In this document: one piece after another, positions 4,658-51,623 of the stretch
How the letters are laid out: each line of letters opens with the position of its first letter
How positions within the stretch are numbered: the stretch's first letter is position 1
Made by a program: the position numbers and the translations under genes
The notes under the pieces: generated by a model
What the model saw: the letters and a program-made list of their open reading frames with translations, nothing else
Databases searched by the model: none
Told to the model about the DNA's origin: nothing
Origin: Candidatus Multivoradales bacterium
GTDB taxonomy: Bacteria; Acidobacteriota; Thermoanaerobaculia; Multivoradales; J023
Direction of reading: 5' to 3'
Assembly (NCBI GenBank): GCA_965248925.1
Contig: CBDFLE010000006.1
Span: forward strand, 5,088,001-5,152,000
Length of the DNA stretch: 64,000 nucleotides

Positions 4658-4705
4658 GGCTCATGACTGGCAAGGCTCATGACTGGCAAGGCTCATGACT
4701 GGCAA
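4658..4705 (+). repeat. Three exact tandem copies of 16-bp GGCTCATGACTGGCAA spanning the sigma start codon
   Basis: Read directly: 4658-4673, 4674-4689, 4690-4705. A TACAAT -10-like box sits at 4649-4654. Confidence 0.95.
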
Positions 4706-5384
4706 TAAAGTGCTGTCCGGACAGTCTTCGCCGCCGCTTGCGGCAGCGGGGCCTGAGTCGCTAGTGAGTCGGATCGAGGCCGGAGACCCGCAGGCCGAAG
4801 AAGACTTGGTGGTTCGCTATGGGCGCTCCGTGGCACTGCTTCTGCAACGGCATACTGGCGGCCGACCGGAGGCCGAGGATCTCTTTCAGGACACTTTTGC
4901 GGTGGCCCTGACCCAACTGCGCCGGGGCGAGTTGCGACAGCCGTCACGGCTGCCTGGATACCTCGCCGGCATCGCCCGCAGCTTGGCCATCGAGCAGTAC
5001 CGCAAGGCTGCGCGGCGCAAGACCGAGCCCAACACCGAGGCGGTGGACGGCCGGGCGAAGGCGCCCGCCGGGCAGCTCGGCGAGTTACTCAGCTCGGAAA
5101 CCGCCAGCCTGGTGCGCCGTCTGCTCGATGGGCTGCGTAACGAGCGTGATCGCGAGTTGCTTTTCCGCTTTTATGTTGCTGAGGAAGAACGTGGCACGAT
5201 CGCCGCTGACTTTGGTCTCGACAGTCTGCAATTCAATCGCGTCCTGCACCGAGCACGGCAGCGCTACAAGACGCTTTATTTGGCCCACCAAAACGGTTTG
5301 GACGGCCAGCGACGGACCTTCCTAAAGGTCGCTAATATTCTTCTTCTGCTGACCTTGGTGCGGGCCCTTGGAGATCCTCGGTGA
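4695..5384 (+). CDS. ECF sigma-70 family sigma factor
   Basis: Region 2 motif EAEDLFQDTF...YLAGIARSL and region 4 motif ERDRELLFRFY...IAADFGL...VLHRARQR; stop overlaps the anti-sigma start. Confidence 0.9.
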   Translation: MTGNKVLSGQSSPPLAAAGPESLVSRIEAGDPQAEEDLVVRYGRSVALLLQRHTGGRPEAEDLFQDTFAVALTQLRRGELRQPSRLPGYLAGIARSLAIEQYRKAARRKTEPNTEAVDGRAKAPAGQLGELLSSETASLVRRLLDGLRNERDRELLFRFYVAEEERGTIAADFGLDSLQFNRVLHRARQRYKTLYLAHQNGLDGQRRTFLKVANILLLLTLVRALGDPR

Positions 5385-6247
5385 TGGATCACGGTTACAT
5401 CGAAGAGCAAGCGCTGATCGAGCGCTACTTTCGTGGTGATTTGCCAGCTGTCGAGGAAGCAGCTTTCGAACAACACTTCTTCGCTTGTGAGCGCTGCCAG
5501 GGCGAGCTCGAGGTGGCGCGGGAAATGGGGCGTGGACTGAAGGCGGTGGCGGCTCAGCAGGCGGTCCGACCGGCCGTCGTGTCAGGAGCTGTACTCGGTT
5601 GGCTGGCCCGCCGCTCGGCTCTCCAGCTGGGTCTGCTGGCGGCGACTCTGTTGGCGGCCTTGGCCCTACCCCTGTTGGTTTTCTATGGCCAGCAGCGCGA
5701 ACTCGACGAGCAGCTACTCGCCGCCCATTCCACCACTCAAGAACTGCGGCAAGACCTGGTCGATGAACGTCAGCGAGCCAACCAGGCCAGCCAGCGTCTG
5801 GTCGTTTCCGCGAGTGATTGGCAAGCACAGCGTCAGCAACTCGAGGAGAAGCTCAAGGAACTCGCTGCCAGCGAATCACCAGCTACGGGGCTGTCCCAGC
5901 CGCTGGTCGACGCGGCGGTCTACCTGCTGGCCGCCATGCGTGACTCGGCGGCGCGGCCAGTGGTGGTTGTGCGCCGGCCGAGCGCTGCGGAGGGCGCCTT
6001 CAGCTTGGCCGTCGATGTGGGTGCCGCTGCCTACGATAGCTATCGCGTAACCATTGTCGATGGTGATGGCGAGCGCCGTTTCGAGCGTGCAGGCTTGAAG
6101 CTCAACGTCCTGGAAGTGGTGATGGTCACTTTCCCCGCTCGCTTCCTCTCGCCGGGCGACTATCGCCTCGAGCTTGCCGGTCGCGAGCCTGGTGGCAAGC
6201 TCACGGTGTTGGCGAGCCACCGTTTTCGCGTTGCCGGGGATTCTTGA
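5381..6247 (+). CDS. zf-HC2 (ZAS) membrane-anchored anti-sigma factor
   Basis: HFFACERC = HxxxCxxC; one TM helix (LGLLAATLLAALALPLLVFYG); coiled coil; C-terminal beta domain; coupled to the sigma gene. Confidence 0.88.
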   Translation: MMDHGYIEEQALIERYFRGDLPAVEEAAFEQHFFACERCQGELEVAREMGRGLKAVAAQQAVRPAVVSGAVLGWLARRSALQLGLLAATLLAALALPLLVFYGQQRELDEQLLAAHSTTQELRQDLVDERQRANQASQRLVVSASDWQAQRQQLEEKLKELAASESPATGLSQPLVDAAVYLLAAMRDSAARPVVVVRRPSAAEGAFSLAVDVGAAAYDSYRVTIVDGDGERRFERAGLKLNVLEVVMVTFPARFLSPGDYRLELAGREPGGKLTVLASHRFRVAGDS

Positions 6248-9387: not shown

Positions 9388-9500
9388 GTTCTTCCACTCC
9401 GCATGCCTGAACATCTAGCACCTGGTGACCTCGCGCCCTGCGAGTGACCGGGAAAGAACTCCCTGACAGTGCGGGCGTCCGCGCCCTGGGGGATCGAGTC

Positions 9501-10700
9501 ATGGTGGCGAAAAGAAGCTGGAAGAGAGCCCTGCTGCCCGCCCTGGGCAAGCTGACGCTGCTGGCAGTCGGCTTCGGCGTAGGGTTGTTGATCGCAGAAG
9601 TTGGAGTGCGGCTGATCGCTCCCCAAGCACTCTGGCAATGGCATCCCGGACCCTTCGTTGAAGACGGCGAAGGATTCTTTCGTTTGCGCCCTGGGCTGCA
9701 CAGTGAGTCGAAGAACCGGGTCGAATTCGAGCACCAGGTGGAGGTCAACGCGGCGGGACTGCGGGGACCCGAGCTGGAGGCCAAGGCTGCGGGGGAATGC
9801 CGCATCCTGGCAATTGGCGATTCCTTCACCTTTGGGGTTGGTGTCGAGGGTGCCGAGGTCTTCCATCAGCAAGCAGCGCTGAGGCTCCGCCAGCAGGGAG
9901 TCTCGGCGACCACTCTCAACGGCGGTATTCCGGCGATTGGTGTACCGCAGGCAGTTCGCTGGCTGCGCCGACACGGGTTGAAGACCGAGCCCGATGTGGT
10001 GTTGCTCTCGTTCTTTGTCGGCAACGATCTGCAGGATGCCAGCTCACGGAACGAATGGGTGATCGACGAAGGACAGCTGGTGATTGGCGCGCGGACCAAG
10101 GGGTGGAAGCGATGGTTCTATCGCAACTCCCATCTCTACGTGCTGTTGAAGAAGTCGCTTTCCGCCAGGCTGCTGGCGCGGTTTGGGCTGCGGGAGCCTT
10201 GGAGTCTGCGCAGTGCGCGAGATAGTTTCGCGGTGTACCAACTGGCTCCGTCGCAGTTGATCGAAGAGGGGCTGCGAAATACCGACCTGGCTCTCACCGA
10301 ATTGGTCGAGCTAGCAGAGGCACATGGTTTTCGGCTAGTTGCGATGCTGATTCCAGACATTCTCCAAGTGGATGACCAGCGTTGGCAGTCGGCTTTGCGG
10401 CAGCTTGAGCTAGCGCCGGCGGATTATCATCCGCGGCGGCCGAGCACAATTCTGCAAGATCTGTTCGCCAGCCATCAGATTCCGTTTCACGACCTGACAG
10501 ATGCTTTCGATGCTGGCTTCGATGCTGGCGAGGCGCTCTACTTTCCAATCGACCGTCATTGGACACCAGCCGGACACCGGCTGGCGGCAGCGGAAATTGT
10601 CGACCAATTGCTCGTGGCAAACGAGGTTTGCAGCTCAGCCGCAAGCGCTGCCGAAGCGCCAGTAGGTCAGGAGCCTCCGGTCAGCGACTCGACTGGCTGA
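9501..10700 (+). CDS. SGNH/GDSL hydrolase family protein (AlgJ/AlgX-like), membrane-anchored
   Basis: TM anchor, ILAIGDSFTFG, FFVGNDL, IDRHWTPAGH. Alternative start GTG 9444. Confidence 0.85.
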   Translation: MVAKRSWKRALLPALGKLTLLAVGFGVGLLIAEVGVRLIAPQALWQWHPGPFVEDGEGFFRLRPGLHSESKNRVEFEHQVEVNAAGLRGPELEAKAAGECRILAIGDSFTFGVGVEGAEVFHQQAALRLRQQGVSATTLNGGIPAIGVPQAVRWLRRHGLKTEPDVVLLSFFVGNDLQDASSRNEWVIDEGQLVIGARTKGWKRWFYRNSHLYVLLKKSLSARLLARFGLREPWSLRSARDSFAVYQLAPSQLIEEGLRNTDLALTELVELAEAHGFRLVAMLIPDILQVDDQRWQSALRQLELAPADYHPRRPSTILQDLFASHQIPFHDLTDAFDAGFDAGEALYFPIDRHWTPAGHRLAAAEIVDQLLVANEVCSSAASAAEAPVGQEPPVSDSTG

Positions 10701-10991: not shown

Positions 10992-12044
10992 ATGTCAGCC
11001 CCCAGCAACAAGCAGAAGAGTCTCAAGAGCCTCGGTAAGCTACGTCGGCGGTCGGTCCGCATCACGTCGAGTTCGTTGGTTGAGGAAGGGGCGATAGATC
11101 CAGGTCAGACCCTCCCCTGGAAGATTCACGCTACCCGACCCGATGTCAGCCTGCTGTCCTGGGCAGCGGACCACCGCGAGCATATTCGTGAGCTCGTCCT
11201 GCGCCACGGAGGGGTTCTTTTCCGCGGTTTCAAGGAACGTGGAGTAGAAGACTTCGAGAGCCTGATTGGCGTCGTCTCCGACAAGCTCTTGGAATACAAG
11301 GAGCGCTCTTCGCCGCGCAGTCAAGTCCAGGGCAACGTCTACACATCGACCGACTATCCGCCTGATCAGGAGATCTTTCTGCACAATGAGAACTCCTATC
11401 AAAGCGGTTGGCCGCAGAAGATTTTTTTCTTTTGCTTGCGGTCTGCGACAGAGGGGGGAGCGACGCCGCTAGCCGATTGCCGTCAGGTGTTTCAGCGGCT
11501 GGCGCCGGAGATTCGCCAGCGCTTTGATGATTTGGGTTGGATGTATGTGCGCAATTTCGGCGATGGCTTCGGCTTGTCGTGGCAAACAGTTTTCCAGACC
11601 GAGGATCGCGCGGTGGTCGAGGCCCATTGTCGTCGCAACGGAGTTGCGATCGAGTGGAAAGATGGGGGCCGGCTTCGTACCCGTGCCATCCGCCCGACGG
11701 CTTTGCGCCATCCGCAATCCGGCGAACTAACTTGGTTCAACCACGCGACGTTCTTCAACATCTCGACCTTGGCGCCGTCGATTCGTGAGGCTTTGCTGGG
11801 AGAATTCGCGATCGAGGACGTTCCCGCTCACACTTACTATGGCGACGGGACAGCGATCGAAAGCGAGGTTCTGGACGACTTGCGGCAGGCCTATAGCCAG
11901 GAAACTACCCGCTTCTCCTGGCAGGAAGGGGATCTGCTAATGCTCGACAACCTGACGGTAGCTCATGGCCGGGATTCTTTCGCCGGCGACCGCAAAGTGG
12001 TCGTCGGCATGGCCGAACCTGGTAGTTGGAGCGAGTTAGAGTGA
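10992..12044 (+). CDS. TauD/TfdA-family Fe(II)/2-oxoglutarate dioxygenase, SyrP-like NRPS beta-hydroxylase
   Basis: RSSPRSQV.GNVYTSTDYP, IFLHNENSY (HxE), WFNHA, DNLTVAHGR...RKV; GGAGA RBS. Confidence 0.92.
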   Translation: MSAPSNKQKSLKSLGKLRRRSVRITSSSLVEEGAIDPGQTLPWKIHATRPDVSLLSWAADHREHIRELVLRHGGVLFRGFKERGVEDFESLIGVVSDKLLEYKERSSPRSQVQGNVYTSTDYPPDQEIFLHNENSYQSGWPQKIFFFCLRSATEGGATPLADCRQVFQRLAPEIRQRFDDLGWMYVRNFGDGFGLSWQTVFQTEDRAVVEAHCRRNGVAIEWKDGGRLRTRAIRPTALRHPQSGELTWFNHATFFNISTLAPSIREALLGEFAIEDVPAHTYYGDGTAIESEVLDDLRQAYSQETTRFSWQEGDLLMLDNLTVAHGRDSFAGDRKVVVGMAEPGSWSELE

Positions 12045-13319
12045 GCTGGTGGGCTCTCCGGCCCCTTCTATAGCCAGGCGATGTAGTAGCTCAGCTGTCT
12101 CTTCAGCGGCTTCTTGATTGCCCTGCTGGCGATGGTAGCGCTCGAGCAAGACGGCGTCGGCGTGGGTCCAAACGCCGCCCTGGGCGAGGTGAATGTGGGC
12201 GAAGAGTTCTTCCACTCGGTCCTCGGCCCCTTGCTGGTCGAGCAAGAGGCGGATCAGCAAGCTGACCGATGGCAGGTGCAGCGAGCGTCCGCCACAGGCT
12301 CCCGAGCAGCAGCTGCGAACTTCGCTGTCGAGCAAGCTGATGGCCTCGGCTGGCCGCTCGAGACGGTCGAGGACCCCAGCTAGTCGTTGGGTGAAGTCCT
12401 GCTGGGCTGGGAAGCGGCGATGGGCGTTGGCGAGAAACTCGGCTGCTTCGGGCCAGCGCTCTGAACTTTGCAGAGCAGCGGCATAGGCGGCGGTGAGCGC
12501 CGGGTCGAAATGCTGTGGCGGGCTGATCTCGGCGAGCCGGGTCAGCACGGCTTCGGGTTCACCGGCGGCGAGTTGCGCTTCGCTCCACAGGGTGGGCAGA
12601 GACAGGGCGCCTGCGTGATCGAAGGGTTCGACTCCGAAGACCTCCCAAACAGCTTCGAAATCAGCCCGAGCCCCTACCCCATCTCCCTGCAGCAGCCGGC
12701 AACGGCCGCGTTCCAAGCGCAGGGCCGGCTCGCTCGGAAACTGCTCGCAGAGAACCTCGAGGGTTTCGGCAGCGGTGGCCGTGTCACCGGTATTGAGGGC
12801 AACCCAGGCGGGCCGAAAAGCTTCCGGCAGCCGTTGCCAGAGGCCGACCACCTCGTCGACTAACGAGTCGAGCAGGGCGTGGTAGTGAGCCTCGAATTCG
12901 ATCTCCGCCGCCGGTCGATCGTCGGCCGCGCGGTCGGCAAGGGCCTGCGCTTCGGTCGTGGCAGCGGCTTCCGCTTGCTCGTCGATCCGTCGCTGAAAAA
13001 TCCTAGCTCGCTGCTTCAAGGGGCGGCGGATGTCGATGTCCGAAGCTCGTTCCAGCGCCACCTGGGTGTAGTCCAGGGCCTCTTCCCAAAGTTCTGCTCG
13101 CTCGGCAACGTCGACCCGCTCGATGGCGATGGCAAGCAGCCGCGCGTCGGCCTGATCGGCGAGCTCGCGGGCGCGCTCTTGCAGCCGTCCTTCGCTGCGA
13201 TGCTCTACTCGCCGCGCCAGCGCCAACGCTCGCGATGGGTCGTCTCGCTTTAGCAATTCGCTGGCTTGCACCAGCAATGCCGCTGGATCGCGGCCAAACA
13301 ATCGTCCAAGAAGGCTCAT
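12036..13319 (-). CDS. Tetratricopeptide-repeat-like helical protein with a CCxxxC patch
   Basis: Ala/Leu/Glu-rich helical repeats (e.g. LRLERGRCRLLQGDGVGARADFEAV); RSCCSGACGG near the C-terminus; likely start MSLLGRLFG; divergent from the radical SAM operon. Confidence 0.7.
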   Translation of the reverse strand: MSLLGRLFGRDPAALLVQASELLKRDDPSRALALARRVEHRSEGRLQERARELADQADARLLAIAIERVDVAERAELWEEALDYTQVALERASDIDIRRPLKQRARIFQRRIDEQAEAAATTEAQALADRAADDRPAAEIEFEAHYHALLDSLVDEVVGLWQRLPEAFRPAWVALNTGDTATAAETLEVLCEQFPSEPALRLERGRCRLLQGDGVGARADFEAVWEVFGVEPFDHAGALSLPTLWSEAQLAAGEPEAVLTRLAEISPPQHFDPALTAAYAAALQSSERWPEAAEFLANAHRRFPAQQDFTQRLAGVLDRLERPAEAISLLDSEVRSCCSGACGGRSLHLPSVSLLIRLLLDQQGAEDRVEELFAHIHLAQGGVWTHADAVLLERYHRQQGNQEAAEETAELLHRLAIEGAGEPTSSL

Positions 13320-13606
13320 CGATCTGGATCTCCAAGGTAAGCGAGAGGTTTGCTCTGGCAGCGACAATAGTGCTGCTGGCTGGCCTTTACAACAATTTTA
13401 CCCGGCCGGGTTCGGCCGTCGCCGAGGCCGCAAAGAGTATGACCAGTGCGCCTCACCGCAGCATTTCGAGGTCTGGGAGGAAGTAGCCGCTGGCTGACGC
13501 CGAGGATTGTAAGCAGCGGTGGCAGAACTCCGGCCGAGGAGTCTGCGTAGCAGCTGGTATCGTCCGCCAGTGGCCTGATTCCAACCCCTCCCAAGGAGCC
13601 CATATC

Positions 13607-14911
13607 GTGACGTCTTTGGCCCGGTCTGTGCCCCAGTCCAATCCGATCTCCGAGTCTGCCGCAGAATCGCCCTATCGGCACGAGGCTCCCCGGCGTTCGT
13701 TTCTGCGCGAGCAGGCTACCTTGGCGCGTTTGGCTTGGCGGACTCTCACCGAGATCTCCCCCCGAGCACTGCTCAAGATGCTCTACCTCTATGCCGGCAA
13801 AGGGGCGGCGGCGGTGTGGGCTTACAAACGGCGATTGGCCAAGGGCGAGCTGTACCCGCCTTTCTTGTTCATCGCCGTCACCAACACCTGCAATCTGCGC
13901 TGCCACGGCTGCTGGGTCGAGAAGGAAGGGCAAGCTCATTTCCTCACCGACCAAGATCTCGACCGGATGATCGTCAGCGGCAAGCGGCAGAAGTCCTACT
14001 TCTACACCCTGCTCGGTGGTGAGCCCTACCTGTTCAAGGGCATTTGGGAAGTCTTTGAGCGGCATTCGGATTGCTATTTCCAGACCATCACCAACGGCAT
14101 GTTGTTCACCGACGAGAATGTCGCCAGGCTGCGGCGCACTGGCAACGTGACGCCGCTGATCAGCCTCGACGGGTTCGAGTCGCAGAATGATTTGCGTCGT
14201 GGTGAAGGAGTGTGGGACGCGGCCCTCGCCGGCATGGAGCGGTTGCGGAAAGCGAAGCTCTTTTACGGCGTGGCGACCACCGCGACGGCGCTGAACATGG
14301 AAGAGGTCATGTCGGACGACTACGTGAACTTCTTTATTGAACGCGGCGCCATGTATCTCTGGTATTACGTCTACCGGCCGATGAGTCCCGAGCCGCACAC
14401 CGAGTACTGCGTCAGCGAAGAGCAGTTGCTGTGGATGCGGCGTCGCCTGCTGGAATTGCGCCGCCGTCACCCGATTCTGATTATCGACACCTACTGGACC
14501 GCTGATGGCGAGGCGTTTTGCCCGGCGGCCACCGGCCTAGGCTTTCACATCGGGCCGCAGGGATCGGTGGAGATCTGCCCGGCCCTGTCTTTCGCCACCG
14601 CCACCGTGCGTGGTGAGCGGGAAGACCTTTATGACACCTTCAACGGCAGCGATTTCTTGCGCGGTTTTCAGGGCTTCGTCAAAGAGCGCACCAAGGGCTG
14701 CGTGATTCTCGAGCATCCGCAAGAGCTGCGCGACTACATCGAAGACGCTGGCGCTCGGGACTACAGTGGGCGCGGCACCGCTTTCTCCGAACTCGGCGCG
14801 CTGTCGCCGCGGCATAGCCACCACCTGCCGGGGCGTGAGATACCCGAGGATTTCTGGTTTTATCGGTTGCTCAAGAAGAACGTATTCTTCGGCATGGGCG
14901 CCAACGGGTGA
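13607..14911 (+). CDS. Radical SAM enzyme with C-terminal twitch/SPASM-like cysteines
   Basis: CNLRCHGC, LGGEP, TNG, ISLDG; later FCPAATG...EICP...KGC; AAGGAG RBS before GTG. Confidence 0.92.
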   Translation: MTSLARSVPQSNPISESAAESPYRHEAPRRSFLREQATLARLAWRTLTEISPRALLKMLYLYAGKGAAAVWAYKRRLAKGELYPPFLFIAVTNTCNLRCHGCWVEKEGQAHFLTDQDLDRMIVSGKRQKSYFYTLLGGEPYLFKGIWEVFERHSDCYFQTITNGMLFTDENVARLRRTGNVTPLISLDGFESQNDLRRGEGVWDAALAGMERLRKAKLFYGVATTATALNMEEVMSDDYVNFFIERGAMYLWYYVYRPMSPEPHTEYCVSEEQLLWMRRRLLELRRRHPILIIDTYWTADGEAFCPAATGLGFHIGPQGSVEICPALSFATATVRGEREDLYDTFNGSDFLRGFQGFVKERTKGCVILEHPQELRDYIEDAGARDYSGRGTAFSELGALSPRHSHHLPGREIPEDFWFYRLLKKNVFFGMGANG

Positions 14912-16119
14912 GGGGTGATTCCGAGCCGGTGATCTACCTCGATCACCACGCCACGACCCCCTGTGATCCGCGGGTTCTTGAGGCCATGTTGCCGTATTTC
15001 ACGGAGAACTTTGGCAATCCATCGAGCACCCAGCATGCCTATGGTCGTCGTGCGGAGGCGGTGGTGGCGGCGGCGCGAGCCGAAGTAGCGGCGCTGATCG
15101 GTGCCAGAGCGAGCGAGATCGTCTTCACCTCGGGAGCCACCGAGGCCGACAATCTGGCTCTCTTCGGGGTGGTCGCGGCAAGCCGCTCGCGGGGACGCCA
15201 TGTCATCACCCAAGTGACCGAGCATCGGGCGGTGCTCGACGCCTGTGGCGAGCTCGAGCGCCAGGGCTGCGAAGTGACCTATCTGGTGGTGGAGTCTGAC
15301 GGTCGGGTAGATCCAGATCGAGTCGCGGCGGCTTTGCGATCCGACACAGTTCTGGTGTCGATCATGCTGGCCAACAACGAGATTGGAACGCTACAGCCGA
15401 TCGCTGAGATCGCCGCCCGCTGTCGCCGCCAGGGCGTACCGCTGCACACCGATGCGGCCCAAGCCCTGGCGCTAGTCGATTGCCACCTAGAGAGCCTAGG
15501 GGTGGATCTGATGTCCTTTTCGGCCCACAAGGCTTATGGCCCCAAGGGTATCGGCGCTCTCTATGTGCGCCGTCGCCAACCGCGAGTGCGGCTGCTGGCG
15601 CGGCAATTCGGCGGCGGCCATGAGCGAGGCCGTCGCTCTGGAACTCTCGACGTACCTTCCATCGTTGGTCTGGCCACTGCTAGTTCTCTGGTGACCGCGG
15701 AGCGTGACAGCGATGCCCGACGCCTGGCCGGCTTGCGGCAGCGCTTACTTTCGGGGTTGCGTCGAGCGCTTCCGGGAGTTGAGGTCAACGGTTCGCTCGA
15801 GCATCGATTGGCCAATAATCTCAATGTCAGTTTACCCGGGATTCATGCCGATCTCGTGCTGCAGGAAGTCTCGGGGGTGGCGTTTTCGAGTGGCGCCGCG
15901 TGTACCTCGCCAGCAGGTTCAAGTTCTCATGTGTTGGCGGCTCTGCCGGAGGGGCGCCAGCGGGCGGATAGGGCGCTGCGGTTCGGCTTGGGTCGTGGCA
16001 CCACCGCTGGCCAGATCGATGCTGCGGTGGCTGAGATAGCCAGGGCTGCCAGCGCGGTGGGGAGCCGGCCACTGGCAGCGGAAGAATCCTGTGCGGTAGC
16101 CGTCTGTGAGGTGCTGTAG
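14908..16119 (+). CDS. IscS/NifS-type (group I) cysteine desulfurase
   Basis: IYLDHHATTP, FTSGATE, NNEIG, HTDAAQ, SAHKAYGPKG (PLP Lys), SSGAACTS (catalytic Cys). Confidence 0.95.
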   Translation: MRGDSEPVIYLDHHATTPCDPRVLEAMLPYFTENFGNPSSTQHAYGRRAEAVVAAARAEVAALIGARASEIVFTSGATEADNLALFGVVAASRSRGRHVITQVTEHRAVLDACGELERQGCEVTYLVVESDGRVDPDRVAAALRSDTVLVSIMLANNEIGTLQPIAEIAARCRRQGVPLHTDAAQALALVDCHLESLGVDLMSFSAHKAYGPKGIGALYVRRRQPRVRLLARQFGGGHERGRRSGTLDVPSIVGLATASSLVTAERDSDARRLAGLRQRLLSGLRRALPGVEVNGSLEHRLANNLNVSLPGIHADLVLQEVSGVAFSSGAACTSPAGSSSHVLAALPEGRQRADRALRFGLGRGTTAGQIDAAVAEIARAASAVGSRPLAAEESCAVAVCEVL

Positions 16120-16650
16120 TTGAGAGACACGGTGAAGTTCAACAGCTTAGTGCCGTCGGAAGACCTGCCGCCGAAAAACCTACGACCGCGAGACTTCGTT
16201 CGCTTTCGCCGGCACCGGTTTGTCGCCAAATTCCCCCGCTCCTACCGCTACAGCCCGGCCCACTTCTGGCTCTGCGAAGACGAGGGCGTGCAACACATCG
16301 GCCTCACCCATTTCGCCACCCGGATGCTGGGGGAGATTGTTGAATTCGACTTCGAAACCAAACCCGGCAATGCAGTCGAGGATGGGCAGGTGATTGGCTG
16401 GATCGAAGGCATGAAAGCGGTGACCGATCTTTTCTGTGTGGCGCGCGGCAGCTTCGCCGGGGTCAACTCGACCGCCCTCGACGACCCCGAGTTGGTGTGC
16501 AAAGACCCCTATGGATATGGCTGGCTTTACGCCGTTCACGGCCAGCCCGGCACCGGCACTCTGGATCTCGACCAATACCTCGAAATGCTCGGCGAGACGA
16601 TCGACGCGATGGAGGAGCAGCCTTGGAAAACACCGCAGATGGCGACTTGA
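16120..16650 (+). CDS. Glycine-cleavage-H-like lipoyl carrier protein
   Basis: YRYSPAHFWL, IGLTHFATRMLGEIV, IEGMKAVTD (lipoyl Lys position), DPYGYGWL. Exact start uncertain (TTG 16120 or GTG 16132). Confidence 0.88.
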   Translation: MRDTVKFNSLVPSEDLPPKNLRPRDFVRFRRHRFVAKFPRSYRYSPAHFWLCEDEGVQHIGLTHFATRMLGEIVEFDFETKPGNAVEDGQVIGWIEGMKAVTDLFCVARGSFAGVNSTALDDPELVCKDPYGYGWLYAVHGQPGTGTLDLDQYLEMLGETIDAMEEQPWKTPQMAT

Positions 16651-17840
16651 GTCGCAGCCTGAAGAGCGCCGCCAACCTCACCGCCAACCGCGCTGCTAAG
16701 GCACCGCGGGCGCGCTACATGATGATCGGTGGCTTTCTCGGCGCCGGTAAGTCCACCGCTGTTGGTCAGCTGGCCCGGAGGTTCACCGAGCGGGGGATTC
16801 GGGTCGGTCTGATCACCAACGATCAAGGCCGTGGCCTGGTGGATAGCCGCAGCCTCAGACACCAAGGCTTCGCCGTGGAAGAGATCGCTGGCGGTTGTTT
16901 CTGCTGCCGTTTCGATTCGTTGAAGGGCGCCGCCGACCGCTTGACCAAGCAGCAGCGTCCTGAGGTCTTCATTGCCGAGCCGGTCGGTAGCTGTACCGAT
17001 CTGGTGGCGACGGTCAGCTATCCGCTGCGCCGCCTTTATGGCGACCGCTTCGCTATTGCCCCTCTTTCCGTGTTGGTCGATCCGCTGCGGGCGGCGCGGG
17101 TACTGGGGATCGAAGAAGGGCGGAAATTCTCCGCCAAAGTGCGTTACGTCTATCTCAAGCAGCTCGAAGAAGCGCATGTGCTGGTGATCAACAAGATCGA
17201 CTTATTGGACGATCTCAAGCGCCGGGCTTTACGCCGCGAACTTGCCGAGCGCTTTCCCACCGCACGGATCTTCGAAGTCTCGGCCCGCCAGGGAGCGGGT
17301 CTCGAAAAGTGGTTCGAGTATCTAGAGCAGAACTCCATCCCCAGTTCGCCGACCCTGGAGATCGATTATCAGCGCTATGGCGAGGGCGAAGCTCTGCTCG
17401 GCTGGCTCAACGGCACCCTCAGGCTGCGGGCTGATCAAGAACTCGACGGCAATGCCTGGACCGTGGCCTTCGCCCGTCGCTTGCAGCAGCGGCTGCTGGC
17501 CGAAGAGGTTGAAGTTGCCCACTTGAAGATGACCCTATCGCCGCTGGCCGAGGCCGGCAGTAGGGATGCCAACAGTGAAGACGAGGAAGTGCTGCCCGGC
17601 GATTTGGCCCTGGTCAACCTGGTTAACAACGACTTCGTTCCCGAAATCTCAGAGCGGTTGGCCGCGCCGTTGCGCCATGGGCAGTTAGTGGTCAATCTGC
17701 GTGCCGAGGCCGCGCCGGCAATCCTCCTGCGGGCTTTCGAAGCGGTGATCGATGGGCGCCCAGAGTTGCGCTTGGAACATGTCGAATGCTTCGAACCGGG
17801 ACAGCCGCGACCCACTCACCGGATGACTTTTGGGAGCTGA
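16647..17840 (+). CDS. CobW/COG0523 (G3E) metallochaperone GTPase
   Basis: GGFLGAGKS Walker A, ITND, GGCFCC (CxCC), EPVG, INKID; TTG 16647 overlaps the upstream stop. Confidence 0.9.
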   Translation: MSRSLKSAANLTANRAAKAPRARYMMIGGFLGAGKSTAVGQLARRFTERGIRVGLITNDQGRGLVDSRSLRHQGFAVEEIAGGCFCCRFDSLKGAADRLTKQQRPEVFIAEPVGSCTDLVATVSYPLRRLYGDRFAIAPLSVLVDPLRAARVLGIEEGRKFSAKVRYVYLKQLEEAHVLVINKIDLLDDLKRRALRRELAERFPTARIFEVSARQGAGLEKWFEYLEQNSIPSSPTLEIDYQRYGEGEALLGWLNGTLRLRADQELDGNAWTVAFARRLQQRLLAEEVEVAHLKMTLSPLAEAGSRDANSEDEEVLPGDLALVNLVNNDFVPEISERLAAPLRHGQLVVNLRAEAAPAILLRAFEAVIDGRPELRLEHVECFEPGQPRPTHRMTFGS

Positions 17841-17845
17841 CCAGA

Positions 17846-18226
17846 ATGGAAACCACGGCAGCCAACTCAGCTGAACGGCGCATTCTTTACTGCCACTGCG
17901 CCTTCTCGCGGGTGGTGAAGGAGGAGGTGAAATCGGCGGTATTCGCTGGCCTGGCCAGCTCGGGCCAAGCCTTCGACGCCGTGCCCGATCTCTGCGAATT
18001 GGCCGCCAGGCAAGATCCGGCGCTACATCGACTGGCCGCCGGCCGCCGGCCGGTCGAAATCGTCGCCTGCTACCCGCGAGCGGTGCGTTGGCTGTTTCAT
18101 GCCGCGGAGGCTGATCTACCCGAGGACAATGTGCGGATTCACAACATGCGGGCCGAGGAGTCGACCACTATTCTCGAGCGCTTGCTCAAAGAAGACAGCC
18201 TCGCCGACCCGGAGACTAGAGGTTGA
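17846..18226 (+). CDS. Small Cys protein resembling the heterodisulfide reductase A N-terminal Fe-S domain
   Basis: ILYCHCA...DLC...IVACYPR...HNMR parallels HdrA VCHCG...C...VAACSPR...NIRE (similarity judged by eye). Confidence 0.6.
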   Translation: METTAANSAERRILYCHCAFSRVVKEEVKSAVFAGLASSGQAFDAVPDLCELAARQDPALHRLAAGRRPVEIVACYPRAVRWLFHAAEADLPEDNVRIHNMRAEESTTILERLLKEDSLADPETRG

Positions 18227-19044
18227 ACCCCTTACAACAAGACCGGCTGCGGGTGGTGATCGACCGCGGCGAGAGGCCAGCGGTAGCGCCACAAGTTGCG
18301 CTCTTGGAAAAGCTCCTGAGCAGCGGCGTGGCACTGACGGCGAGTGGCGAAGGTGCGGTGGCGCCGCTCGACGACGCCGAGCTGCTGGTGCTTGAGACCA
18401 CCACGAAAGCCAACGTTGAGACGGCGAAATCGACCGCCGAAGAAGGGGTCCAGCTGACCAAGATGGCGGTGGGTGGCCTCGACCCTGCCGAGGTTTTGAG
18501 TCGGGTCGAGGCCAAGGGCCAGGGCAAGCCGGCCGGTGGCTGGACGCCGTGGTTTCCAGTGATCGACTACGATCGCTGTACTAACTGCATGCAATGCCTC
18601 AGCTTCTGCCTTTTCGGGGTCTACGATGTCGACGCTGAAAAGCAGATCGACGTCAAGCATCCCGAACGTTGCAAGACCCTCTGCCCGGCCTGCTCGCGGG
18701 TCTGTCCGGAAGTGGCGATCCTCTTTCCCAAATACAAAGCTGGTCCGATCAATGGCGATGTGGTGAAAGACGCCGATCTGGCGCGGGAGAAGATGAAGAC
18801 CGATATCTCCTCCCTGCTCGGAGGCGATATCTACTCCTTGCTACGCCAGCGAACCGAGAAGGCGGCTTCCAGATTTTCCAAGGAACGCGACGAAGATCGA
18901 GCACTCAAAGAACGCCAGCGTTGTCTGGCCAAGCTCAAGAAAGATCTCGACATTCCCGACGAGGTCCTATCCCAACTACCGACCGCCGAAGCCATCCGGG
19001 CGCGCGCCAGCGAACTTCTGGCGGCGCGCACCAAGGGAGAATGA
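18223..19044 (+). CDS. 2x[4Fe-4S] ferredoxin-domain protein
   Basis: IDYDRCTNCMQCLSFC and CKTLCPACSRVCPEVAI; overlaps both neighbours by 4 nt. Confidence 0.88.
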   Translation: MNPLQQDRLRVVIDRGERPAVAPQVALLEKLLSSGVALTASGEGAVAPLDDAELLVLETTTKANVETAKSTAEEGVQLTKMAVGGLDPAEVLSRVEAKGQGKPAGGWTPWFPVIDYDRCTNCMQCLSFCLFGVYDVDAEKQIDVKHPERCKTLCPACSRVCPEVAILFPKYKAGPINGDVVKDADLAREKMKTDISSLLGGDIYSLLRQRTEKAASRFSKERDEDRALKERQRCLAKLKKDLDIPDEVLSQLPTAEAIRARASELLAARTKGE

Positions 19045-20762
19045 TCATGCCACTGCCGGTGATGAGTCTGCCAAAGGTCATGATGCCGCGCCTCGAAAGG
19101 CCGGTGCAAGCCAATATTCCGCCGACCCGAGAGCAACGCGACGAGCTGCTGGCCCGGATCCGCGAATTCACTGCGACGACGGATCTGGTGCCGCCATTGC
19201 CTCTCGCTGACTTGCAGGTCGAGGCGGAGAAGATCTGTCGACGGCATGGATTTGATCCTGCCTTCAGCGAATTCGCCGCTCTGTTGATTAGCAACGAGTT
19301 GTGGCGTGAGTCGTTGGCCTCAGTGCCTTTCGAGCGCCGCCTGTTGCTGTTGCCCAAATGCATGCGGGTCGAAGAGCACTGCCCAGCTCCCTTCGATGAG
19401 TTGGGTCTGCTATGCAAGAAGTGTGGCCTGTGTTCGATCGAGGATCTGCAAGAAGAAGCCGAGCGCATGGGATATGCCGTCTTGGTGGCGGAGGGCTCGC
19501 CGATCGTCATGGCGATAATCGAGACCGGCCAGATCGAGGCCATCGTCGGGGTCAGTTGTCTCAACGTGCTGGAGCGGGTATACGGCTATATGGAGGCCGC
19601 GGCCATTCCCGGCATCGCCCTACCGCTGTTGCAAGATGATTGTCTGGACACCAACGTCGATCTCGATTGGGTGTGGGATTCAGTCCATCTGACCAGCGAC
19701 GACAAGACCCGGCGTTTGGATCTTGGCGGGTTGCGTGACCAGGTCGCCACCTGGTTCGGGGCGCTGGCCCTGCAGGAGATCCTGGGCGAAGCAGAGACCG
19801 AGACTGAAAAGATTGGCCAAGAGTGGTTGGCCCAAGGAGGCAAGCGCTGGCGCCCCTTCCTGACCGTCGCTCTGCATCAAGCCTTGCAAGAAGAACCCGG
19901 TGCCGAGATCTCCAAGGTCATCCGGCAAGTCGCCTTGGCGGTGGAGTGCTTCCACAAGGCTTCGCTGATTCACGATGACATCGAAGACGGTGATGATCTG
20001 CGCGATGGCCGCGAGACTTTGCACAGCCGGCTGGGGGTGCCCCTAGCGCTCAATGTCGGCGACTATCTGGTCGGCGAAGGCTACCGCCTGCTAGCCACCG
20101 TCGAAGCCCCCGCCGAAAGCATCGCGGAGATGCTGCGCTTGGCGGCGGAGGGGCATCGCACTTTGTGTCTGGGCCAGGGCGATGATCTGGCGTGGTCGCA
20201 AGAGCCCAAGATCCTGAAGCCGATCGAGGTGGTGAAGATCTTCAAGAACAAGACCGCGCCAGCTTTCGAAATTGCCTTGCGACTGGGTGCGGCCTGCGCC
20301 AGCGCCAGTGCCGAGTTGCACGACACCCTGAGCGCCTTCAGCGACGCCTTGGGAGTGGCCTATCAAATTCGTGACGATCTCGGCGAGTTGCGTGAAGCCG
20401 CTACCGCCGGAGAGGCGCCAGAACGCCGGCCGACCTTGGTCTGGGCGTTGGCCTATGCCGCGGCCAAGAAAGCGCGGCGAGCCGAGGTCAAGGCAGCGTG
20501 GATCGACGGTCAAGGAGCGCCGGCCGAGCTGCACGCCCTGTTGACCGATCTCGGTGCGGACACGAGAGCCGAGGAATTCCTCAACGCCTATCGAGACGAA
20601 GCGATCCGCTCTCTGCGGTTGTTGCAGGACGCCAATGTCAAGGGTCTCCTGCGGCGGGTGCTGGGCAAGATTTTCGACGAGCTCAAGATCGAGGGGTGGT
20701 GTAGTGAGTTTGAGACTGGAGATGTTGCAAGTCGCCAGGCTGGCGCCGCGGTTGCTGGGTGA
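19041..20762 (+). CDS. DUF116 (Cys-rich) - trans-polyprenyl diphosphate synthase fusion
   Basis: N-half: LLLPKCMR...CPA...CKKCGLC...GVSC...LLQDDCLDTNVD. C-half: GGKRWRP, first Asp-rich motif HDDIEDGDDLRDG, GQ, KTA, second motif YQIRDDLGE. ATGA overlap at 19041. Confidence 0.88.
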   Translation: MIMPLPVMSLPKVMMPRLERPVQANIPPTREQRDELLARIREFTATTDLVPPLPLADLQVEAEKICRRHGFDPAFSEFAALLISNELWRESLASVPFERRLLLLPKCMRVEEHCPAPFDELGLLCKKCGLCSIEDLQEEAERMGYAVLVAEGSPIVMAIIETGQIEAIVGVSCLNVLERVYGYMEAAAIPGIALPLLQDDCLDTNVDLDWVWDSVHLTSDDKTRRLDLGGLRDQVATWFGALALQEILGEAETETEKIGQEWLAQGGKRWRPFLTVALHQALQEEPGAEISKVIRQVALAVECFHKASLIHDDIEDGDDLRDGRETLHSRLGVPLALNVGDYLVGEGYRLLATVEAPAESIAEMLRLAAEGHRTLCLGQGDDLAWSQEPKILKPIEVVKIFKNKTAPAFEIALRLGAACASASAELHDTLSAFSDALGVAYQIRDDLGELREAATAGEAPERRPTLVWALAYAAAKKARRAEVKAAWIDGQGAPAELHALLTDLGADTRAEEFLNAYRDEAIRSLRLLQDANVKGLLRRVLGKIFDELKIEGWCSEFETGDVASRQAGAAVAG

Positions 20763-21642
20763 TTCCACCGAGCTGATCCGCGATTTCACCTTGGCGGCGC
20801 AGGCGCCGGACGGGGGATTCCGCGACCGCGGCGGCGACAGCGACCTCTATTACACGGTTTTCGGCCTCGACGTGTTGGCGATTCTCGAGGGTCTCGGTGC
20901 TAGCGGTAGTGAAGGAACTCAGACAGATGCTGAGGTCTGGCGCCGTGCCGGAGGTTTCTTGGCTAGCCTGGGTCACCAAGATCTCGATCTAGTGCATCTG
21001 ACCTGCCTGGCGCGATCCGCGGCAGCCGTTGCCGCGGGAACCAAGACCGCGGAGCTGCCCATCGATCATCAAGTCCTGGTCGATCGTCTTCTAGATCTTC
21101 GCCGTCAAGACGGAGGCTGGGCGATGACCTCGGGGGATTCCTCCAGCACCACCTATGGCACATTCCTGGCCATCGGCGCCCATCAAGACCTAGGGCTGCC
21201 CTTTGCCGCCCCCTCCTCGGCAGCGGCTTTCCTGGCGGCGGCGGTCGGCGAAGACGGCGGCTACGGCTCTGCCCCTTCGATGCCGGTGGCGACCACGCCG
21301 ACCACCGCGGCGGCGGTGGTGGCGCTGCGTCAGCTAGGTGCCGAAGCTCACCCCCAGACCGCCCGCTGGTTGCGCCGTCAGTTGCATCCTCAGGGAGGAT
21401 TTGTGGCGGCGGCTGGAGCTCCGATGCCCGACTTGCTGTCCACCGCGGTGGCCCTGCATGCGTTGTCCGTCTTGCAGGAGCCATGTGCCGATCTGGTCGA
21501 TTCGCTGCTCGATTTTGTCGATAGCCTGTGGACCTCGCGCGGTGCCTTCTTCGGCCATTGGGCGGACGATGCAGCAGATTGCGAGTACGCCTACTACGGC
21601 TTGTTGGCCCTGGGACATCTGGCGGTTTGGAGCGACGGATGA
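20704..21642 (+). CDS. Prenyltransferase/squalene-oxidase-repeat alpha/alpha barrel, protein-prenyltransferase-beta-like
   Basis: Repeats AQAPDGGFRDRGGDSDLYYTVFGL, RRQDGGW, EDGGYG, PQGGF, DCEYAYYGLLAL; single barrel of about 312 aa; no cyclase DxDD. Confidence 0.8.
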   Translation: MSLRLEMLQVARLAPRLLGDSTELIRDFTLAAQAPDGGFRDRGGDSDLYYTVFGLDVLAILEGLGASGSEGTQTDAEVWRRAGGFLASLGHQDLDLVHLTCLARSAAAVAAGTKTAELPIDHQVLVDRLLDLRRQDGGWAMTSGDSSSTTYGTFLAIGAHQDLGLPFAAPSSAAAFLAAAVGEDGGYGSAPSMPVATTPTTAAAVVALRQLGAEAHPQTARWLRRQLHPQGGFVAAAGAPMPDLLSTAVALHALSVLQEPCADLVDSLLDFVDSLWTSRGAFFGHWADDAADCEYAYYGLLALGHLAVWSDG

Positions 21643-23507
21643 GCATCGCGGCCGCGCGCAGCCCACCATCGCCAGCCAAGGCCTCCGCAGCCGAACTTGA
21701 CCGCGTCTTGGGTGAAGTGCGGGCCGAACTCGTGCGCCGTTTTCAGCCTCGTGGCCACTGGCGAGGCGGTTTGTCATCGAGTGCTCTGTCGACCGCGGTG
21801 GCCTGCTTCGCTATCACCTTGGTTAGCGAGCAGCGAGGACAGTGGCCAGAAGACTCGCGCGCCTTGGCCCGTCGCGGACTAGATTGGTTGGCTGCCCATG
21901 CCAATGCCGACGGTGGTTGGGGAGATACGGTCCGGTCGGTATCCAACTTGCCCACCACGGTTCTGGCCTGGGCTGCGCTGCGGGCGGCGAGGGACTCCGA
22001 AGTCGGTGCGGTCACAGGTCTTGCATTGGCCATCGACGGTGCCGAAAGCTGGATTGTGCGCCGCACGGGGGACTTGCAACCAGACTCGCTGCGACGGACG
22101 ATCGAAGACCTCTACGGCAAGGACAAAACCTTCTCCGTACCTATTCTCACCCTGGTCGCGCTAGCCGGGCTGCTGGGCCCAGAACCCGATTGCTGGCGCG
22201 GTATCACCCCTTTGCCTTTCGAGTTGGGGGCGTTACCCCAGGCGACTTTTCGCTTCATCGGCCTACCGGTAGTGAGTTACGCCTTACCGGCGTTGATCGC
22301 TGTCGGCCAGGTACAGCACCATCGTCGACCGTCGAAGAACCTGTTGGCGCGCTGGCTACGGCAGATCTTGCGCGCTACCACTCTGCGCCGCTTGCAAACC
22401 CTGCAGCCCTCGAGCGGTGGATTTCTGGAAGCGATTCCGCTCACTGGCTTCGTCACCTTGAGCCTCGCCGGAGCGGGGGAGTGCGATCACGCCGTGGTGC
22501 GAAAGGCGCAGGAGTTCTTCGCTCAGTCGGTGCGCGAAGATGGCAGCTGGCCGATCGATGTAGATCTGGCCACCTGGATCACCACCCTGTCGATTCAGGG
22601 ACTGCGAGAATCAGGGGGAGTGGCAGCAGCGGTGGGCGTGGCTGGGGTGGCAAGCTTACGCCGCTTCTTGCTCCAACAGCAGTACAAAGAGATTCACCCC
22701 TTCACCGGTGCGGCTCCCGGAGGCTGGGCCTGGACCGATCTGCCGGGGGGCGTTCCTGATGGCGACGATACTCCTGGAGCGGTCTTGGCCCTGCGGCATC
22801 TCGGACCAATCGACGACCAGGTTCGGGCCGCTGCCGCCGCCGGTTTGCGCTGGCTTATCGGCTTACAAAATCGCGATGGCGGCATACCGACCTTTTGCCG
22901 CGGCTGGGGCACCCTGCCCTTCGATCGCAGTTCTCCCGACCTCACCGCCCATGCACTGCGCGCGATCCACGCCTGGCGCGACGAGCTTGCTGAGGACCTT
23001 CGGTCCAGCCTCGATCTCTGTGCCCGCCGCTGTCGGCAGTATCTGCACCGGGTCCAACACGCCGATGGCTCGTGGGTACCCTTGTGGTTTGGCCACGAAG
23101 CTGCGCCGTCGAACGAGAATCGGGTCTTTGGAACCGCCCGAGTTCTGCGCGCCTTGGTCGAGTTGCAGGATCCTACGGTGGCATCGATGATCGAGGCCGG
23201 CCGAGCCTACTTGCTAGCGGCCCGCAACAACGACGGAGGTTGGGGTGGCGGCGAGGGCATCGCTTCGTCGATGGAGGAAACCGCACTAGCGCTCGATGCG
23301 CTGTCGCGTCTAGAAGACCCAGATCTAGCACCAATTCTTCAGCAAGCCGCCGGTTTTTTGTGCCGGGCCTGGGATGCTGGCCGCTTCAAGCAGGCGACAC
23401 CGATTGGTTTTTACTTTGCTAATCTGTGGTACTTCGACGACGCCTATCCGCTGGTCTTCACCGCGGCGGCGCTGGGGCGGGCGCAGGGGGTCCTGGCGGT
23501 GCGTTGA
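21639..23507 (+). CDS. Squalene-hopene-cyclase-like class II terpene cyclase
   Basis: QW-type repeats (NADGGWG, REDGSWP, LQNRDGG, VQHADGSW, NNDGGWG) and GGWAWTDLPGGVPDGDDT with DxDD; ATGA overlap. Confidence 0.88.
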   Translation: MSIAAARSPPSPAKASAAELDRVLGEVRAELVRRFQPRGHWRGGLSSSALSTAVACFAITLVSEQRGQWPEDSRALARRGLDWLAAHANADGGWGDTVRSVSNLPTTVLAWAALRAARDSEVGAVTGLALAIDGAESWIVRRTGDLQPDSLRRTIEDLYGKDKTFSVPILTLVALAGLLGPEPDCWRGITPLPFELGALPQATFRFIGLPVVSYALPALIAVGQVQHHRRPSKNLLARWLRQILRATTLRRLQTLQPSSGGFLEAIPLTGFVTLSLAGAGECDHAVVRKAQEFFAQSVREDGSWPIDVDLATWITTLSIQGLRESGGVAAAVGVAGVASLRRFLLQQQYKEIHPFTGAAPGGWAWTDLPGGVPDGDDTPGAVLALRHLGPIDDQVRAAAAAGLRWLIGLQNRDGGIPTFCRGWGTLPFDRSSPDLTAHALRAIHAWRDELAEDLRSSLDLCARRCRQYLHRVQHADGSWVPLWFGHEAAPSNENRVFGTARVLRALVELQDPTVASMIEAGRAYLLAARNNDGGWGGGEGIASSMEETALALDALSRLEDPDLAPILQQAAGFLCRAWDAGRFKQATPIGFYFANLWYFDDAYPLVFTAAALGRAQGVLAVR

Positions 23508-32230: not shown

Positions 32231-32472
32231 TAGATCACCACCCTTGGCGAAGTTTCTCCTTAAGACGGTGGTCTCTCTGTGGCGCGTGGGCAGCTACTCC
32301 CATGGCTCTGTTGAGGTAAAATACTGGCCGAATAGCGGGTTCTTTCACAGGTCTGTGGGGGGATTCAACAGTCAGTTCGATAGGCCTGGGCGGCGCCTAA
32401 TCGGTGTCAGGGTGGGTCTGCGGGTCAAGTTTTATACTCCTGGAATTTTCTTCCGATGGCTTGCGGAGAACG

Positions 32473-50061: not shown

Positions 50062-50098
50062 CCCCTGGCTTGGATCGGCCGACGGAGAACATTTCAAT

Positions 50099-51619: not shown

Positions 51620-51623
51620 GCCA

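Follow-up and report, generated by a model that had tools for sequence, protein, structure and literature searches.

A GcvH-like protein of a conserved bacterial terpenoid cassette: a possible swinging-arm relay for the cassette ferredoxin

The subject of this paper is a GcvH-like protein that most probably does not serve glycine cleavage and is instead a component of a conserved terpenoid operon. Its gene lies within 64,000 nucleotides of DNA (the window, whose positions we use unless a contig or locus is named) from Candidatus Multivoradales bacterium, one of the Acidobacteriota (GenBank assembly GCA_965248925.1, contig CBDFLE010000006.1, positions 5,088,001 to 5,152,000, forward strand). 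The operon appears to combine a DUF116::polyprenyl synthase fusion (hereafter DUF116::synthase), a prenyltransferase-like protein and a class II cyclase of the DxDD type with a radical SAM (S-adenosylmethionine) enzyme, which would act as the tailoring enzyme. What might an H protein be doing in such company? Our tentative answer is that it works as a lipoyl-type swinging-arm relay, carrying electrons, or possibly sulfur, for the ferredoxin that the cassette itself encodes. So far, H-type lipoyl carriers have been placed in glycine cleavage, in sHdr sulfur oxidation (as LbpA) and in the GcvH-L/SirTM stress operon. Ours, if the answer is true, would add a use distinct from these, in which a dedicated H-like carrier is linked with a ferredoxin and with an uncharacterised terpenoid cassette that occurs across several phyla in many bacteria of soil and water. 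A full-text literature search, with subscription journals and bioRxiv supplements beyond its reach, found no description of either the cassette or the family.

The start codon is a TTG that abuts the TAG ending the upstream gene, with no change of frame (a GTG four codons on is an alternative start), so that the IscS-like and GcvH-like genes share one reading frame, 14908-16650, with a single TAG codon between them. An earlier note on this DNA, made from the sequence alone, had drawn attention to two things in the translation: a kept modifiable lysine, in WIEGMKAVTD (K99), and a basic, aromatic N-terminal extension, RDFVRFRRHRFVAKF (residues 24-38). Both are there, and both are conserved. Across an alignment of 65 family members G93, W94, E96, K99 and A100 are invariant, as are T63, F65, A66 and R68-G71 of a T-x-F-A-x-R-M-L-G motif, of which T67 and the following E72 are conserved in at least 90%. 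F34 of the extension is likewise invariant, with R31 and P39 conserved in at least 90%; none of the cysteines is invariant in this alignment. With K99, E96 and the N-terminal motif all conserved, the feature is real and under selection, not a product of chance.

The fold is that of an H protein. Pfam GCV_H matches residues 43-140 at 69.7 bits (cut-off 22.2), and an AlphaFold2 model built on 65 relatives has a predicted local distance difference test (pLDDT) score of 92. Its top Foldseek matches are solved GcvH structures, with 3tzu at E 3e-11, a target-normalised template-modelling (TM) score of 0.87 and a root-mean-square deviation of 1.8 Å. With canonical GcvH (PF01597, TIGR00527) the protein has in common this fold, the E-x-x-K-A lysine hairpin and an acidic core. 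It differs in its operon, in the FATRMLGE motif and in what has been added at either end. Some 35 residues extend the N terminus, 14 of which are predicted to form a conserved beta-hairpin rather than a disordered tail (strands 26-31 and 34-39, pLDDT about 94-96), and the model has a conserved helix at residues 150-165 near the C terminus. None of the solved GcvH structures in the Foldseek comparison covers the N-terminal hairpin. The sequence scores also set the protein apart: it falls below the cut-offs of both NCBIfam GcvH models (TIGR00527, 69.6 bits against 115.85; NF002270, 78.6 against 117) and far short of two models for other H-like proteins, NF045810 (GcvH_rel_desulf; 33.7 against 150 bits) and TIGR03077 (not_gcvH; 25.1 against 144.05 bits).

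Relatives are not plentiful. Searching gave 108 proteins at E ≤0.001 among 136 candidates, mostly from metagenome-assembled genomes (MAGs) of Acidobacteriota, with a few from Verrucomicrobiota and others; those that carry a name in their source are called 'glycine cleavage system protein H'. When 1.84 billion representatives were searched with a profile, 8575 GcvH-like sequences matched at E 0.001 and only 72 at E 1e-30. No member reached an NCBIfam cut-off among the 15 sequences scanned, which comprised family members and near relatives. Two apparent kinds of fusion among the representatives, IscS::GcvH-like (P0174, P0216) and GcvH-like::CobW (P0139), have long Arg-rich, frameshift-like stretches at their junctions; we took these for artefacts and not for Rosetta-stone evidence.

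We built a maximum-likelihood tree from 50 hand-picked sequences (32 of the family, 8 intermediate, 8 canonical and the 2 LbpA proteins of the same genome). The family forms a single clade with support of 99/97 and a long stem, distinct from canonical GcvH and from the genome's own LbpA proteins; the two LbpA sequences, the only ones in the tree and both on long branches, fall outside it. Its sister, with weak support (89/55), is a second N-extended family, recognisable by a hairpin L-x-F-x-M-G-x-F-E-A-x-x-P, an IESSKA lysine hairpin and a C-terminal W-E-x-x-Q-x-x-L-K-G-Q (L029:5986-6447, P0203, P0205, P0242, P0250, P0253 and P0256 are examples). The N-terminal hairpin is basic in our family, net +3 to +6 in most members, and not basic in the sister; the lipoylation hairpin is common to both and to canonical GcvH. 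Judged by its sequence, then, the protein belongs to a clade of the GcvH/lipoyl-carrier fold that is small, has no name and is marked by an N-terminal extension, and two sister families now annotated as 'glycine cleavage system protein H' have been defined.

Nor is this the only gcvH of its genome, a possibility the earlier note had allowed for. Its 7.98 Mb, in 6 contigs, contain four GCV_H genes, of which ours is the fourth paralog. The canonical gcvH (127 aa, 156.6 bits) adjoins gcvT at C6:657 kb, and two LbpA genes lie on contig C5 inside an sHdr cluster. So the protein is not the housekeeping H protein, as had been suspected. Four of five other cassette genomes likewise have a second, canonical-scoring GcvH. 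Two further observations belong with these paralogs. The sHdr cluster is complete (L005, C5:368000-387999), with DsrE-family proteins, HdrC/B/A-like subunits, EtfAB, two LplA-like ligases, the two LbpA proteins and a radical SAM enzyme. And gcvT beside the canonical gcvH (L001, C6:655730-659083) reads as two overlapping open reading frames (ORFs), 2256-3101 (-) of 281 aa and 1930-2325 (-) of 131 aa, so that this aminomethyltransferase gene may be frameshifted or wrongly assembled.

Nine closely packed genes on one strand make up the cassette (13607-23507, Table 1), with the GcvH-like gene in third place; in several pairs the stop and start codons overlap. Glycine-cleavage, LplA/LipB and LipA families found no match among the 25 window ORFs scanned (728-32230 and 49994-63999, with 32404-50061 left out), which bears out the earlier note on that point; its naming of the neighbours, a desulfurase and a radical SAM enzyme other than LipA, was also right. 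The same cassette turns up in Acidobacteriota, Planctomycetota, Gemmatimonadales and other MAGs. Scanning species genomes gave 19 related loci, in which we sought the cassette genes by tblastn with the window's proteins; 17 had other cassette genes, the exceptions being L016, to which we return, and L017, which is cut at the GcvH-like gene itself. Downstream sequence of 1.5 kb or more is available for 17 loci: a CobW-like gene directly follows the GcvH-like gene in 15 of them, and the small protein and the ferredoxin are present in 16. The order of genes varies by phylum. In Acidobacteriota it runs radical SAM-IscS-GcvH-like and onward; in Planctomycetota and Gemmatimonadales it runs GcvH-like-CobW-small protein-ferredoxin-radical SAM and onward, with IscS last.

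Counting over whole genomes ties the protein to one partner in particular. The family, at 205 bits or more, is present in 10 of 401 sampled genomes of its own phylum (among them G049, which is unpublished), all other matches scoring 98 bits or less. DUF116 was found in all eight of the carriers tested, within 5 kb and on the same strand in seven; the two genes of the eighth, G245, are on separate contigs. DUF116 in any form occurs in 58 of the 401 genomes and its long fused form (at least 120 bits, ORF of at least 525 aa) in 12, of which 10 carry the family. Planctomycetota gave the same picture on a larger scale. There, 73 of 301 sampled genomes have a cassette-type DUF116::synthase, and 27 have the GcvH-like family; all 27 have the synthase, and in 23 the two genes share a contig, no more than about 5 kb apart in 22 and 12.6 kb apart in the other. 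The sister family (at least 138 bits) occurs in 21 of the 301, again always with the synthase, which is within 8 kb in 11. Taken together, the two N-extended families are accompanied by DUF116::synthase in 48 genomes of 48 and, at the thresholds used, occur in none of the 228 genomes that lack it, counts which, because related genomes are not independent, show a strong association and not a probability, and overstate its significance. At the genome level the carrier is not separable from DUF116::synthase. The earlier note had also wondered about an isoprenoid arm; the isoprenoid link stands at the level of the pathway, in this strict co-occurrence with a polyprenyl synthase and with a class II cyclase.

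Within the loci the picture is different. The most constant neighbour of the GcvH-like gene is the unit of small protein and ferredoxin, not the desulfurase or the radical SAM enzyme. The idea of a pathway carrier thus holds, in that the protein is a conserved component of a cassette, though the two neighbours with which the earlier note had associated it are not the constant partners. That the small protein and the ferredoxin act as one unit follows from their natural fusions: the Cys-containing small protein is fused to the ferredoxin in L013, L025, L031 and L032. The sister family tells a similar story. Its gene is directly followed, in six of seven loci (L028, L029, L034, L035, L036 and L037, not L038), by a ferredoxin fused to a Cys-less relative of the small protein; only in L038 and in L016 does a carrier stand without an adjacent ferredoxin unit. 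After the sister pair comes the cyclase in L028, L029 and L037, then DUF116::synthase in the first two, and no IscS, CobW or cassette-type radical SAM gene is close by. In G593 and G448 the pair is hundreds of kilobases away from the cyclase. We also considered whether the cysteines of the small protein track the presence of CobW or IscS, and ruled this out: cassettes without a GcvH-like gene retain the cysteines with neither gene present.

The radical SAM enzyme can be separated from the carrier, and so, where the sister family is concerned, can IscS and CobW. Six cassettes (L025, L026, L039, L043, L046 and L049) keep the radical SAM orthologue and have no GcvH-like gene. Beside this stands an observation on the radical SAM enzymes themselves, whose families vary among cassettes (L013:2720-4282, L031, L032, L033, L035:7272-8582): some are SPASM/twitch-like, some are B12-binding proteins of about 520 aa and some are HemN/HutW-like, and in G593 a HemN-like enzyme lies beside the sister pair, away from the cyclase. 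Such variety suggests variable tailoring of one terpenoid scaffold. A four-chain complex prediction, run without controls on the CobW-like protein, the small protein (residues 25-140) and the ferredoxin with GcvH-like residues 20-176 as partner, gave interaction prediction scores from aligned errors (ipSAE) of 0.00 and 0.02, values that weigh neither for nor against binding.

Some cassettes without the GcvH-like gene have something else in its place. Directly upstream of the small::ferredoxin gene of G270, on the same strand, are genes for a NuoE-like [2Fe-2S] protein, a NuoF-like FMN/NADH protein and a GltD/NfnB-like flavoprotein. Five of 24 GcvH-less loci (L025 at 12194-18040 on the minus strand, L044, L047, L053 and L055) have such a NuoF/GltD-like module, with or without the NuoE-like protein, within 3.2 kb upstream of small::ferredoxin and on the same strand. 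The module had no match in 32 sources (507 kb) that included 27 GcvH-like-bearing loci. It appears to do, with NAD(P)H, the same job as the carrier in cassettes that have no GcvH-like gene. Chiefly because module and carrier are placed in this complementary way, we suppose that the carrier feeds the ferredoxin or accepts from it, and that it is not a sulfur donor. The two are predicted to be alternative feeders of one ferredoxin.

How might such a relay be built? The fold, the invariant lysine, the paralogy, the clade, the place in the operon and the statistics of neighbours and co-occurrence are observed; the modification, the partners and the direction of flow of electrons or sulfur we infer. 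Lys99, at the tip of the canonical hairpin, would bear a lipoyl-type dithiol arm, probably added in trans by the housekeeping enzymes LipB/LplA and LipA. We suppose it to be added in trans because the cassette has no ligase of its own and because all five complete cassette genomes have a gene of the LplA/LipB type (LplA-B_cat), with LipA in four; in the present genome LipA and a LipB/LplA-type gene are located elsewhere. That a lipoylation enzyme would be what modifies Lys99 is also suggested by G334, where a divergently oriented gene for a 223-aa LplA/LipB catalytic-domain protein (L059:12557-13228, +) adjoins an IscS-GcvH-like cassette. Housekeeping lipoylation fits the protein core, which is acidic like that of GcvH: its isoelectric point, a sequence-level proxy for surface charge, is 4.1-4.9 in 25 family members against 4.05 for the GcvH of the same genome, and the region preceding the lysine reads DFE, much like the DLPE of GcvH. 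Surface charge, according to a 2026 preprint, decides between acceptance by Lpl(AB) and by sLpl(AB), the ligases telling acidic GcvH from basic LbpA (10.64898/2026.10.01.755906).

The arm would move between partners as a dithiol/disulfide, possibly a persulfide, relay and so tie the cassette ferredoxin to cellular reducing power, for example by way of dihydrolipoamide dehydrogenase. Exchanging electrons or sulfane sulfur with the arm, the small-protein/ferredoxin unit could then work for the radical SAM enzyme, for the Cys-rich DUF116::synthase or for both. The N-terminal beta-hairpin and the C-terminal helix, both conserved, would be the means of docking peculiar to this family. Being small, soluble and easily expressed, with a single lysine to follow by mass spectrometry, the GcvH-like protein offers a handle on the whole cassette.

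That a lipoyl arm may carry electrons or sulfur has its precedent in LbpA of the sHdr system. LbpA is a stand-alone GcvH homologue that works outside glycine cleavage and is encoded in the sHdr operon (PMC10332631; 10.64898/2026.10.01.755906). Our protein resembles it in being a GcvH homologue outside glycine cleavage in an operon rich in Fe-S proteins. It differs in several ways: the cassette has no sHdr, DsrE, sLpl(AB) or LipS1/LipS2 neighbours, the core is acidic where that of LbpA is basic, the two LbpA proteins in the tree branch outside its clade, and the terminal Cys pair ascribed to LbpA in 10.64898/2026.10.01.755906 is not invariant in the family. GcvH-L, from the SirTM/macrodomain/LplA2 operon (PDB 5a35), is also a second, specialised H-like protein. 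It is, however, a weak structural match to our model (query-normalised TM 0.46, 19% identity), and the scanned window ORFs include no sirtuin, macrodomain or LplA2 neighbour.

Several observations weigh against a redox relay for the ferredoxin. IscS and CobW nearly always accompany the GcvH-like family and not its sister, and a role in redox chemistry alone leaves this unaccounted for. In reducing power, dihydrolipoamide falls short of typical 2[4Fe-4S] ferredoxins. The protein is also accessory to the cassette, because cassettes exist without any N-extended GcvH-like gene: 25 of the 73 Planctomycetota genomes with DUF116::synthase have neither family, and the gene is absent genome-wide from the cassette genomes G270, G566 and G692. 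Conversely, the GcvH-like gene of L016 sits on a 5.7-kb contig among unrelated neighbours and with no cassette genes, and the non-independence of the genomes tempers the co-occurrence counts. Replacement by the flavoprotein module, for its part, appears from position in a few loci, in four of which an unannotated gap of 1.3-3.2 kb separates module and ferredoxin; of the 12 GcvH-less loci whose upstream sequence reaches 3.5 kb or more, five have the module and seven do not. As for the arm, Pfam and NCBIfam scans of the cassette in the window detect neither a ligase or transferase nor a lipoyl synthase, LipA was not found in one complete cassette genome (G413), and the LplA-like gene of G334 has no orthologue near any other locus compared, which makes it a single-locus occurrence.

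The first of these points keeps a rival alive. Because IscS and CobW go with the GcvH-like family and not with the sister, we have to consider a sulfur shuttle, the first option of the earlier note, in which the lysine arm or its persulfide takes sulfane sulfur from the IscS-like desulfurase and hands it to the radical SAM enzyme, which then builds it into the terpenoid or, by a reaction like that of LipA, into the arm itself. We think this unlikely, although several observations favour it. IscS immediately precedes the GcvH-like gene, in frame and with only the TAG between; it is in the cassette at 14 of the 19 related loci, the remainder being mostly cut contigs; L013 retains the pair although it has no CobW and its radical SAM enzyme belongs to another family; and the four extra invariant cysteines of the cassette's radical SAM enzyme could hold an auxiliary cluster. 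What tells against it is that the presumed sulfur acceptor also occurs without the carrier, its orthologue being retained in the six GcvH-less cassettes named above, and that the sister family does without the donor, sitting with ferredoxin, cyclase and synthase in loci that have neither IscS nor the radical SAM enzyme. The radical SAM enzyme, moreover, has NirJ/AhbD/HpnH-like and not LipA models as its best matches and shows no similarity to the radical SAM enzyme of the sHdr cluster, and the GcvH-like protein has no invariant Cys of its own.

The strict co-occurrence with DUF116::synthase (48 of 48 against 0 of 228) can be turned to another purpose. Perhaps the protein is an isoprenoid carrier, its lysine or arm thiols loaded with a prenyl or terpenoid group from DUF116::synthase so that cyclisation and tailoring take place on a tethered substrate. 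The cassette does lack a recognisable lipoate ligase, it does encode a prenyltransferase-like toroid protein and a CobW-type metallochaperone GTPase, and the N-terminal hairpin is strongly basic in most members. Even so, we regard this as improbable. No candidate enzyme for the attachment was found, the hairpin of the sister family is not basic, E-x-x-K-A is an ordinary lipoylation motif, and the 25 of 73 DUF116::synthase genomes that have no such carrier nevertheless keep the synthase and, where seen, the cyclase. Bolder, and distinctly improbable, is the idea that the arm dithiol or the lysine is alkylated by an allylic diphosphate from DUF116::synthase, making the carrier the acyl carrier protein ('ACP') of an isoprenoid pathway. 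The toroid protein and a CobW-delivered metal might then assist the alkylation, and the Fe-S system of ferredoxin and DUF116 might, by reduction, free or process the polyprene on its tether so that the DxDD cyclase can take it up. We know of no lipoyl or GcvH protein with a role of this kind.

The protein might, on the other hand, bear no arm at all and be a structural or regulatory subunit, its fold a docking module for the GTPase or the ferredoxin and its lysine kept for binding. The conserved and confidently modelled hairpin and helix, both family-specific, would suit a docking module, as would the translational coupling of its gene to that of the CobW-like GTPase (a TTGA overlap); we nevertheless give this little credence, since the entire lipoylation hairpin (G93, E96, K99, A100) is invariant, as is typical of modified carriers. 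Finally, a spare glycine-cleavage H protein, or a lipoyl-relay GcvH (compare the LipM/LipL relays of Bacillus), present here by chance is very improbable indeed: the fold and motif are canonical and the nearest sequence models are those of GcvH, but the scores of 69.6-78.6 bits miss the GcvH cut-offs of 115.85-117, the family has its own clade, its operon context is conserved across phyla and the canonical gcvH adjoins gcvT elsewhere in the genome.

Table 1. The nine genes of the cassette, with their positions in the window.
Feature	Position	Strand	Remarks
Radical SAM enzyme, not LipA	13607..14911	+	434 aa; Pfam Radical_SAM 60.4 bits
IscS/NifS-like cysteine desulfurase	14908..16119	+	403 aa; Aminotran_5 246.8 bits
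GcvH-like carrier protein, N-extended	16120..16650	+	176 aa; presumed modified Lys99
CobW/COG0523-like GTPase with GCFCC motif	16647..17840	+	cobW 76.1 bits
Small protein with four invariant Cys	17786..18226	+	probable start ATG 17846
2[4Fe-4S] ferredoxin-domain protein	18223..19044	+	273 aa; Fer4_10 and other Fer4 families
DUF116 (Cys-rich) fused to trans-polyprenyl diphosphate synthase	19041..20762	+	DUF116 117-120 bits; polyprenyl_synt 143.6 bits
Prenyltransferase/alpha-alpha-toroid protein	20722..21642	+	Prenyltrans 50.8 bits; probable start ATG 20722
Squalene-hopene-cyclase-like class II terpene cyclase	21639..23507	+	SQHop_cyclase_C 92.2 bits, SQHop_cyclase_N 46.7 bits

The partners deserve a closer look. 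The radical SAM enzyme has a CxxxCxxC cluster (C95/C99/C102) which, with C156, C305, C324 and C365, is invariant in 10 orthologues; it scores far short of every NCBIfam cut-off (NirJ2, AhbD, HpnH, Tes and others), and its closest solved structure is just SkfB, at E 1e-10. Its stop overlaps by 4 nt the start of the desulfurase, for which IscS models give 445 bits, short of the equivalog cut-off of 548. The CobW-like protein starts either at TTG 16647, overlapping the GcvH-like stop, or at ATG 16719, and its P-loop and C84/C86/C87 are invariant in 16 orthologues. Seventeen sequences each of the small protein and the ferredoxin show C36/C38/C70/C95 of the former and eight cysteines of the latter to be invariant. 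The small protein had no Pfam match at E ≤5 and no PDB sequence match at E ≤10, and the Atlas gave unnamed clusters only.

Orthologue matches to DUF116::synthase start at about residue 121-135 of its ORF, the ATG of which (19041) overlaps the ferredoxin stop. The AlphaFold2 model of the DUF116 domain, from a 14-row alignment, is poor (pLDDT 63, about 40-65 in the core). We read the start of the prenyltransferase-like protein from the sequence and from the farthest orthologue matches; its overlap with the DUF116::synthase ORF had looked like a candidate recoding site, and the internal ATG at 20722 accounts for it. The terpene cyclase retains a DGDDT (DxDD) motif and lies below the NCBIfam cut-offs for squalene-hopene cyclase. 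Hopanoid clusters, with squalene-hopene cyclase and HpnH, likewise combine a class II DxDD cyclase with a radical SAM enzyme and a prenyl synthase. They differ in that the cyclase and radical SAM enzyme of our cassette are far below the squalene-hopene cyclase and HpnH cut-offs, and to our knowledge hopanoid clusters contain no GcvH-like, CobW-like, small-Cys/ferredoxin or DUF116 component.

Beyond the cyclase, after 129 nt, a nonribosomal peptide synthetase cluster fills the rest of the window (23636-63999, +), with ORFs of 2864, 5885, 1129, 2142 and more than 859 aa, the 5885-aa ORF being outside the domain scan. We ruled out these genes (23636 onward) as part of the pathway; since the genes flanking the cassette vary from locus to locus in all the related loci examined, they are most likely a neighbouring cluster. 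Within it, at 49994-51619, is a gene of the aromatic amino acid lyase/aminomutase type. Upstream of the cassette are a TauD-family dioxygenase (10992-12044) and an SGNH hydrolase (9444-10700), and farther back a 1127-aa TPR-CHAT protein (728-4111, +), followed by a sigma factor of the extracytoplasmic function type (4695-5384) and an anti-sigma zf-HC2 protein (5381-6247).

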